From a virus, in IMG/VR virus record IMGVR_UViG_3300045988_175865, positions 60,001-92,000 of that record: a stretch of 32,000 nt of DNA. One strand, written 5' to 3'. The notes beneath the pieces were generated by a model. That model was not told the origin of the DNA and made no database searches. It worked only from the letters and a program-made list of their open reading frames with translations. Shown piece after piece: positions 23,537 through 23,665 of this stretch; position 1 is the first letter of the stretch; each line of letters opens with the position of its first letter. The translations under genes were made by a program, and so were the position numbers.

Positions 23537-23665
23537 TCTAATTGACAGGATTCGAACCTGCAGATGTTTTGATTAACACCACATATTGTTTCAATACAGC
23601 CAAATTAGTTTTCATTTGACGAAGGGATATTAGTCCCTAGCGTATACCAATTCCGCCACAATTAA
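23537..23665 (-). tRNA. aberrant 129-nt tRNA-like gene (Leu-type D arm, 6-nt anticodon loop, ~60-nt insertion at the variable-arm position)
   Basis: Acceptor TTAATTG/CAATTAG, D arm GCGGAATTGGTATACGC, perfect stem AGGGA/TCCCT closing CUAAUA, T arm GCAGG-TTCGAAT-CCTGT. Confidence 0.55.

Follow-up and report, generated by a model that had tools for sequence, protein, structure and literature searches.

A conserved, oversized tRNA-Leu-like RNA in the tRNA island of human-gut phages: a candidate non-decoding tRNA mimic

Architecture of the tRNA-like gene

We analysed a 32,000-nucleotide (nt) stretch of viral DNA (positions 60,001 to 92,000 of the IMG/VR record IMGVR_UViG_3300045988_175865; hereafter the window), which has a G+C content of about 30% and is dense with small open reading frames (ORFs), tRNAs and one transfer-messenger RNA (tmRNA). 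Our subject is a tRNA-like gene of 129 nt on its minus strand (hereafter the element), which reads, in order, UUAAUUG, UG, GCGGAAUUGGUAUACGC, U, AGGGA-CUAAUA-UCCCU, 61 nt, GCAGG-UUCGAAU-CCUGU, CAAUUAG and A. The element and its immediate surroundings are made up as follows (bp, base pairs; MFE, minimum free energy; R1, the family model described below):

23537..23665, minus strand: tRNA-like gene, whole, 129 nt; Rfam tRNA 32.8 bits, R1 family model 158.7 bits
23666..23673, minus strand: 5' leader AAGUUUGU; pairs with the 3' trailer and lengthens the acceptor helix
23659..23665, minus strand: acceptor stem, 5' strand UUAAUUG; partner at 23538-23544, 4 of 7 pairs compensated in the four homologues
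23640..23656, minus strand: Leu-type D arm GCGGAAUUGGUAUACGC; A14, A15, G18G19 and A20a in place in the sequence
23623..23638, minus strand: anticodon-like hairpin AGGGA/UCCCU, 5 bp, with the 6-nt loop CUAAUA at 23628-23633
23599..23620, minus strand: extra hairpin 1, GUCAAAU-GAAAACUA-AUUUGGC, in the variable region
23583..23597, minus strand: extra hairpin 2, GUAUUG-AAA-CAAUAU; 3 of 6 pairs compensated
23563..23580, minus strand: extra hairpin 3, GGUGUU-AAUCAA-AACAUC; MFE prediction
23545..23561, minus strand: T arm GCAGG-UUCGAAU-CCUGU, from the Rfam alignment; one compensated pair
23537..23544, minus strand: acceptor stem, 3' strand CAAUUAG, and the A at the discriminator position (23537)
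23530..23536, minus strand: 3' trailer CAAAUUU, the partner of the leader, inside the 14-nt spacer ahead of tRNA-Met
23448..23522, minus strand: tRNA-Met(CAU), 14 nt downstream of the element; ARAGORN, Rfam 75.4 bits
23340..23426, minus strand: canonical tRNA-Leu(UAA); ARAGORN and Rfam

A preliminary description of this DNA, made from the sequence alone, had reported a well-formed acceptor stem, Leu-like D arm and T arm, a perfect 5-bp stem closing a 6-nt loop, an insertion of about 60 nt in place of a variable arm, and a tRNA-Leu(UAA) and a CAU tRNA as neighbours. All of these were recovered, the insertion being the string then quoted and counting 61 nt; the Rfam alignment deletes one anticodon-loop position and lets the long insert fall in the variable region. 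The Rfam tRNA model covers exactly 23537-23665 with 32.8 bits (gathering score 29), with an E-value of 0.0027 when the whole window is searched and of 5.9e-05 when the search is confined to 701 nt. No other tRNA match in the window scores lower, its tRNA-Leu genes reaching 49-59 bits. ARAGORN, which had been proposed as a check, called 11 tRNAs and the tmRNA in the window and left the element out.

The D arm agrees with the bacterial tRNA-Leu D arm, and with the consensus GGCGGAAUUGGUAGACGC of a wider set of phage RNAs treated below, at 17 of 18 positions, and the U at 23562 that precedes the T arm is the equivalent of position 48. At 61 nt and three hairpins, the variable region lies outside the ranges of both class I (4-5 nt) and class II (about 10-21 nt) tRNAs. 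The unconstrained MFE fold returned the cloverleaf together with the three extra hairpins at -32.9 kcal/mol (z = -3.0), which none of 200 shuffles equalled, and with 12-nt flanks it also included a helix between leader and trailer (-46.8 kcal/mol, z = -5.5). This helix lengthens the acceptor from 7 to 15 bp and is predicted to pair A73 with the leader U at 23666 (U-1) in the primary transcript.

Conservation and covariation among diverged phages

Pattern scans and a protein-anchored walk recovered three further versions of the element:

L133: IMG/VR contig of 159 kb; homologue
L135 (the same sequence as L171): ENA contig of 88 kb and IMG/VR contig of 164 kb; homologue
L189: Logan contig of 156 kb; divergent homologue

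The first of these can be aligned with the window only across the element (90% identity) and the second over RNA genes only, so that the element retains 80-90% identity among phages whose flanking DNA is unalignable. A covariance model built from three sequences (R1; window, L133 and the L135 family) and tested on the fourth found L189 with 87 bits (E about 1e-25); L133 and L135/L171 score 149 and 152 bits, and ordinary tRNA-Leu genes 50 bits at most.

In the four-sequence alignment 98.7% of the 155 pair cells (39 pairs) are paired, and 13 of the 39 pairs carry changes on both sides: four in the acceptor, three of the five in the anticodon-like stem (which is present in all four homologues), two in hairpin 1, three in hairpin 2 and one in the T stem. 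None of 500 shuffles reached the observed values, and sliding the partners left 39-50% of cells paired with 0-1 compensated pairs. An independent MAFFT alignment of three sequences with their flanks gave 99.3% pairing and four compensated pairs; in it, all 15 pairs of the lengthened acceptor helix are retained in the window, L133 and L135, one of them compensated (G-C versus A-U). The extension is missing in L189. The best conserved part of the element is the 61-nt insert, within which hairpin 1 is unchanged in the window, L133 and L135 and compensated at two pairs in L189 (G-C to C-G, A-U to G-C). A pseudoknot between the 6-nt loop and hairpin 2, for which 5 bp are possible in the window, is not conserved in L135 or L133 and was rejected.

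The tRNA core, the short anticodon-like hairpin and the three-hairpin domain are thus kept by selection in four diverged gut-phage lineages, and we regard it as very likely that the element is a selected structured RNA. The comparison of orthologous loci suggested in the preliminary description had a divided outcome: the insertion is conserved in all four versions, the 6-nt loop in the window and L135 only.

Presence and absence in sister genomes

Of 22 contigs with the identical neighbouring gene (collapsed 'similar places' included), about 6 carry the element and about 16 lack it. Four of ten loci with an identical 72-amino-acid (aa) neighbour hold it, identical at 129 of 129 positions; at two, tRNA-Met and tRNA-Leu(UAA) are present and the element is not; and at the remaining four neither the element nor tRNA-Met or an intact tRNA-Leu(UAA) is found, tRNA-Leu(UAA) being split by an insert. 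The closest IMG/VR relatives (L141 and L142, flanks 86-94% identical) likewise lack the element and carry a different tRNA-Leu(UAA). The element is, hence, an accessory cassette in a mosaic tRNA island. A variable or deleted locus had been put forward beforehand as the mark of neutral decay; the locus is indeed absent from many relatives, yet this takes the form of cassette presence or absence, with no decay of the sequence.

This polymorphism in near-identical genomes invites an explanation without any function in trans, namely a selfish or structural cassette: either a mobile tRNA-derived unit bounded by 15-bp inverted repeats, or an RNase P 'punctuation' signal in a polycistronic transcript. 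The genomic context is unlike in the window, L133, L135 and L189, the conserved unit stops exactly at the inverted repeat AAAUUUAUUUAAUUG...CAAUUAAAUAAAUUU, and the island also shows the activity of HNH endonuclease genes and of an intron-like insert. However, no target-site duplication is visible in the flanks, L189 retains the internal structure without the inverted repeat, and the genuine tRNAs on either side already supply processing sites. Moreover, compensation in the hairpins and the anticodon-like stem bespeaks selection on RNA structure, which neither mobility nor an RNase P signal would need, and we consider this explanation unlikely, if the best placed of those that compete with a functional RNA.

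The split tRNA-Leu(UAA) genes (L173, L176, L177 and L179) are interrupted after CUU, between U34 and A35, which is the classical group I intron site. Their insert of about 777 nt ends in a G and encodes an HNH_3 endonuclease (e.g., L176 2135-2911); the insertion site and the terminal G fit a group I intron, although Rfam gave no Intron_gpI match at the gathering threshold in the split gene. The window element misses exactly one U at the loop position equivalent to this insertion site. In the HNH ORF (L176 2239-2742, plus strand), just ahead of the HNH motif, two positions at which Trp would be expected are in-frame TGA codons (HFTGQG*NVG and GSIK*NG), which as read from the sequence would point to recoding of TGA as Trp in the lineage. 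A tRNA with the anticodon UCA was not found in the window.

The anticodon-like loop and the question of decoding

The anticodon-like loop is the least conserved part of the element, its four versions being 6, 6, 8 and 7 nt long:

Window: CUAAUA, 6 nt
L135: CUAACA, 6 nt
L133: UAAAAUAG, 8 nt, or 6 nt closed by a U-G pair; without U33
L189: CUUUAAA, canonical 7 nt, with U33 and anticodon UUA

Because the loop of L135/L171 also counts 6 nt (CUAACA) and four independent assemblies carry the identical 129 nt, the short loop of the window is not a sequencing error. The window element lacks the canonical 7-nt loop with U33 and a 3-nt anticodon, and a stop-codon anticodon in such a loop is absent from the window, L133 and L135 and present only in L189. 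A search of IMG/VR with the exact 16-mer of the anticodon arm gave chance matches only, in coding or terminator contexts. With the loop unconserved and the discriminator predicted to be buried, decoding is therefore unlikely for the window copy, and we take it as likely that this copy does not decode.

The opposite case would be an unusual decoder, with the body of a tRNA-Leu and an expanded variable arm, that suppresses stop codons or promotes frameshifting, charged by leucyl-tRNA synthetase (LeuRS) regardless of its anticodon and serving recoding in a stop-reassigning lineage. It draws on L189, whose canonical 5-bp stem and 7-nt loop with U33 present an ochre/amber-reading UUA anticodon, on the E. 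coli-type LeuRS determinants (A73, A15/U48, G18G19, A20a) retained by the window copy, and on the two in-frame TGAs of the HNH ORF, through which recoding would exist in the lineage. But L189 itself is without U8, A14, A15 and A73 (with U73, G14 and U15 instead, and the acceptor CUGUAUG), and the remaining versions, with 6-nt loops in the window and L135 and 8 nt without U33 in L133, have no anticodon in common. The loop, which in a decoder should be the most conserved part, is the least; the discriminator is predicted to be base-paired in three lineages; the 61-nt, three-hairpin variable region far exceeds that of any known decoder; and the recoded codon is TGA, yet no version has a UCA anticodon. 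An expanded suppressor-type tRNA, one of the options first proposed, thus finds no support for the window copy, given its 6-nt loop, the lack of a conserved anticodon and the predicted pairing of the discriminator, and a decoder of any kind appears improbable. L189 may, nonetheless, point to a decoding ancestor or relative.

The element could also be taken for a pseudogene in decay, which arose by duplication of tRNA-Leu(UAA), lost one nucleotide of the loop and gained an insertion. Its anticodon stem has the same sequence as that of the neighbouring tRNA-Leu(UAA), its loop departs from CUUAAAA by one missing U and one A-to-U change, ARAGORN rejects it, many sister genomes lack it, and L141 holds a truncated remnant of a second tRNA-like gene of this island (tRNA-like-2, below). 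Decay is nevertheless hard to reconcile with 80-90% identity across phages with unalignable flanks, 13 pairs changed on both sides at 98.7% pairing, an insert that is the best conserved part (hairpin 1 being invariant in three lineages) and 129 identical nt in four independent assemblies. Cross-phage conservation and compensatory changes therefore make a decaying pseudogene very unlikely, and the decayed duplicate envisaged in the preliminary description finds no support. Lastly, an intron-containing tRNA-Leu whose insert of about 60 nt is spliced out to leave a normal class II tRNA is scarcely credible even with the intron biology of the U34|A35 insert (about 777 nt, with HNH) in sister genomes, given that the element's insert sits in the variable region and not in the anticodon loop, falls, with its 61 nt, far below the length of a group I intron (at least about 200 nt), matches no intron family in Rfam at E up to 10, and on excision would still leave a 6-nt anticodon loop.

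Phage RNAs built on a tRNA-Leu chassis

A scan of IMG/VR for a Leu-type D arm with GGUUCGAAUCC at a distance of 65-95 nt behind it yielded at least 118 loci, at nearly all of which the flanking 7-mers pair as an acceptor stem and the middles are unrelated from one locus to another. In a mixed set of 106 sequences selected by this pattern, U8G9 was present in 104 of those listed, a U ahead of the T stem in 103 and A73 in 87. A second scan used the commonest 5' half, AGUCAGGUGGCGGAAUUGGUAGACGC (AGUCAGG plus GGCGGAAUUGGUAGACGC), and gave at least 121 distinct closed RNAs with near-identical T arms; their identical acceptor and Leu D arm were set by the pattern. Their middles are 23-311 nt long (median 62) and fall into 101 unrelated clusters, no 6-mer being shared by more than 13 of the 101 clusters listed. 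None of the 121 matches listed has a canonical anticodon arm, 110 lack even an anticodon-like hairpin, 99 carry the discriminator A, and many form pseudoknots.

The hallmarks of these RNAs (hereafter chassis RNAs; L015-L132 and L191 onward in IMG/VR, L145-L170 in bacterial assemblies) are an acceptor that is often AGUCAGG/CCUGACU, the D arm GGCGGAAUUGGUAGACGC, the T arm ACAGGUUCGAAUCCUGU, A73, and middles of 20-311 nt, and the genuine tRNA-Leu genes on the same contigs have other acceptor and T arms. Among the matches listed up to three copies with differing middles occur at one locus, and pseudoknotted middles show compensatory changes between closely related copies. Chassis RNAs are weak tRNA matches in Rfam and mostly missed by ARAGORN. 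They also occur in bacterial assemblies, mainly of Bacteroidota and of other phyla too (as prophages); of two such loci checked, one lies beside a phage portal gene and the other beside a tape-measure gene. The AGUCAGG chassis was not found in INPHARED, and a limited search, which is no proof of novelty, found no description of chassis RNAs in the literature or in Rfam 15. The nucleotides that stay constant in them (A73, A15-U48, G18G19, A20a and the D/T elbow) coincide with the requirements of E. coli LeuRS.

The element resembles the chassis RNAs in its Leu-type D arm GGCGGAAUUGGUAnACGC with U8G9, its T arm of the form nCAGG-UUCGAAU-CCUGn preceded by U (in the version GCAGGUUCGAAUCCUGU exactly common to 8 of the 106 members listed), its A73, its non-canonical middle, and its location in phages, often next to tRNA genes. 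It differs in an unrelated acceptor (UUAAUUG/CAAUUAG in the window, as against AGUCAGG) and in retaining a local anticodon-like hairpin, and among the loci examined the leader/trailer extension was seen only in the element (window, L133 and L135) and L126. No acceptor intermediates were found that link the element to AGUCAGG/CCUGACU and would speak for shared descent, and the resemblance may be one of convergence. The most fitting view of the element is that of a single lineage among phage RNAs of a broader and apparently undescribed kind, in which a tRNA-Leu chassis carries unrelated structured modules in place of the anticodon/variable domain. Rather more tentatively, it could be the tip of a large phage class of processed, possibly leucylated, non-decoding RNAs that serve in an arms race as interchangeable effectors, for example by luring away or inhibiting translation factors or host defences directed at tRNAs. 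Such RNAs would be natural counterparts of the engineered tRNA scaffold (below).

Two further observations were made on chassis loci. A subfamily with the acceptor GCUUUGG (L020, L060, L069, L072 and L099, and L167 from a Prevotella metagenome-assembled genome at about 1881-2055, minus strand) has a middle of about 125 nt that holds a second T-arm-like hairpin GGUGGGUUCGAAUCCC and a D-arm-like sequence, i.e. a tRNA-like unit nested in a tRNA-like unit. On L089 two neighbouring chassis RNAs (9509-9647 and 9652-9813) have a type II hammerhead ribozyme about 220 nt upstream of them (9217-9291, plus strand), which exceeds the gathering score of its Rfam model with 45.5 bits.

Comparison with known systems

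The element has the 7-bp acceptor, U8, Leu-type D arm, 5-bp anticodon stem, T arm, A73 and extra arm of a class II tRNA-Leu, and differs from it in a loop of 6 nt (not 7), a three-hairpin extra region of 61 nt (not 13-21 nt) and the 15-bp helix. The nearest classical parallel is provided by the species 1 and 2 RNAs of phage T4 (rnaC and rnaD), which are oversized (139 and 119 nt), stable and tRNA-like, are of unknown function, and are encoded where the T4 tRNA cluster ends, on the strand of its tRNAs (NC_000866 annotation). T4 rnaC shares a canonical T arm (CCGGG-UUCGAAU-CCCGG) and an acceptor-like stem with the element; the similarity is confined to these (17.5 bits with R1, no match to the Rfam tRNA model), and rnaC has neither a Leu-type D arm nor an anticodon-like hairpin. 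The hosts differ as well, being Enterobacteria for T4 and probably Bacteroidota for the phage studied here.

In the engineered tRNA scaffold of Ponchon and Dardel the acceptor, D and T arms are reportedly retained for processing and stability, and the anticodon region is replaced by a cargo RNA. The scaffold is synthetic, so the likeness is one of design only, by analogy with which the chassis might serve stability. YrlA RNA occurs in some phages. It is described as a bacterial non-coding RNA in which a tRNA-like module (T arm, D arm) is joined to a long terminal helix (10.1101/312249). Its ends leave from the anticodon-stem side and its acceptor-like stem is capped, a topology other than that of the element. 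Identity with YrlA was rejected, the one Rfam match being a chance one (18.2 bits against a gathering score of 69) that spans the T arm of the element and the D arm of the next tRNA, and no Ro/Rsr gene was seen in the window. Phage tRNAs have been reported to evade anticodon nucleases through altered loops (van den Berg et al. 2023, eLife 12:e85183, cited in PMC12851939). Such tRNAs were the lead given in the preliminary description. They too are phage tRNA-type genes with loops departing from the host-type sequence, but they are functional decoders with point substitutions in 7-nt loops, in contrast to the shortened, unconserved loop and the 61-nt extra domain of the element.

Other identities were also rejected. 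The tmRNA of the window is a separate gene (10717-11138), and the element has A3-U70 (not G3-U70) and no reading frame. Among Rfam families other than tRNA no match was real at E up to 10, those to YrlA, RefA1 and a plastid-UTR family being artefacts of tRNA-like sequence.

A proposed non-decoding tRNA mimic

Taken together, we favour the explanation (with a probability of roughly 0.55) that the element arose from a class II tRNA-Leu and functions as a tRNA mimic, which does not decode but acts on a tRNA-binding protein. The functional mimic proposed at the outset hence stands in its general sense of a selected, tRNA-shaped and almost certainly non-decoding RNA; the idea of a decoy for anticodon nucleases is weakened, since the anticodon-like loop is the most variable part.

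The element is probably in the same transcript as tRNA-Met(CAU), which follows it in L135/L171 too, and we reason that it would be co-transcribed with the flanking tRNAs and freed by the enzymes that process tRNAs. Where RNase P cuts at tRNA-Met, a 14-nt trailer would be left that pairs with the leader. The tRNA-like elbow and the acceptor/T limb could then engage a tRNA-recognising protein without the RNA entering translation, and the conserved three-hairpin domain would be the source of its specific function. Candidate partners are a host tRNA-targeting defence nuclease, LeuRS, or a modification or processing enzyme, though for any named target the case is doubtful. E. coli LeuRS requires A73, A15-U48, G18G19 and A20a, can dispense with the anticodon and the variable arm, and charges tRNA-Leu stripped of both arms (PMC9976931). 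As all of these identity nucleotides are present in the sequences of the window, L133 and L135, engagement of LeuRS by the window copy is plausible.

Several points weigh against this reading. The homologues are few (four distinct versions, including the window), and the four-sequence alignment was fitted to the model and is biased toward the structure. Hairpin 3 is comparatively the weakest helix, with one-sided changes only, two unpaired cells and no compensatory support. The absence of the element from most near-identical genomes, and from L141 and L142, makes it dispensable. LeuRS recognition is not conserved in the lineage, because L189 lacks U8, A14, A15 and A73, and the modelled 15-bp leader/trailer helix could hinder processing by RNase P and would hide the 3' end. 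Complementarity of at least 12 nt, as expected of an antisense target, was found in the window only to the T arms of other tRNA genes. As for the wider group, membership in the AGUCAGG superfamily is judged by features that belong to the general tRNA-Leu consensus, and the neighbourhoods of chassis RNAs yielded no conserved partner protein, the largest protein cluster covering 9 of about 112 loci.

Genomic neighbourhood

No close relatives of the window were found in INPHARED, where DNA similarity is limited to crAss-like and Bacteroides phages and concerns tRNA genes and a few ORFs; at the element locus it extends only to the flanking tRNA-Leu and tRNA-Met. The assembly index lists the 72-aa ORF adjoining tRNA-Leu(UAA) in 874 of its blocks. 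The contigs that carry it measure about 160-170 kb and come from human-gut samples, and we are therefore dealing with a prevalent human-gut phage, whose host is probably a member of the Bacteroidota.

A second oversized tRNA-like gene (tRNA-like-2) lies at 23801-23905 of the window (minus strand; 105 nt, Rfam tRNA 34.7 bits) and is likewise left out by ARAGORN. Its D arm is of class I type and its T stem imperfect; the anticodon region is irregular, with a loop of about 8 nt (GUGGCAAC), and the variable region of about 40 nt is structured. L174 holds an identical copy, and L141 retains only some 30 nt of its 5' part (about 5280-5310). By eye, a Bacteroidetes-type TAnnTTTG box (TATATTTG) was seen upstream of tRNA-like-2 only, at a distance of about 14 nt. 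A scan for sigma-70 promoters and terminators gave no informative signal for the probable Bacteroidota host.

Other aberrant tRNA-like genes are found in phage tRNA islands: L135 614-683 (minus strand; 70 nt, directly upstream of the element), L163 6766-6852 (plus), L161 576-655 (minus) and L190 2414-2506 (plus). ARAGORN itself reports two 'tRNA-???' genes with 2-nt anticodons, equivalent to 6-nt loops, as well as a 93-nt 'tRNA-His(AUG)'; 6-membered anticodon loops therefore recur in such phages.

The phage-encoded tmRNA (window 10717-11138, minus strand; Rfam 50 bits, tag AKNTVRKMANKVMPLATPMRAQVAFAA) is present in L135 (903-1520) and L189 (9162-9600) as well; the element lies about 300 nt downstream of it in L135/L171 and 12 kb from it in the window. 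Downstream of the tmRNA region, the relatives L183-L190 carry an NAD-salvage block (e.g., L183 14584-18536) with genes for isochorismatase-like, NAPRTase, NAD synthase, CTP_transf_like and NUDIX proteins. An intergenic stretch at 20880-21084 of the window is 75% conserved with L135 4081-4283, between phages that are otherwise unalignable; in L135 it coincides in part with a RAGATH-33 match that stays below threshold (43.5 bits, gathering score 120), and the conserved stretch may be another structured RNA. The proteins encoded in the window include an IMPDH/GMP-reductase-like (42-1118) and an HD-domain protein (2128-3060).

Implications

Phage tRNA clusters are commonly read as supplements for codon usage or against host defences, and the 'rejects' of tRNA finders are usually discarded as pseudogenes; here, one such reject in a very common gut phage is a selected structure. 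Its architecture is new, that of a conserved, probably non-decoding tRNA-Leu mimic, and the chassis family is more surprising than the element itself. If chassis RNAs are processed and charged like tRNAs, they would add a new layer of phage-host interaction at tRNA-binding proteins such as LeuRS, RNase P, the CCA enzyme and tRNA-cleaving defences (anticodon nucleases, Cas12a3), and they would offer an evolutionary precedent for the synthetic tRNA-scaffold strategy.

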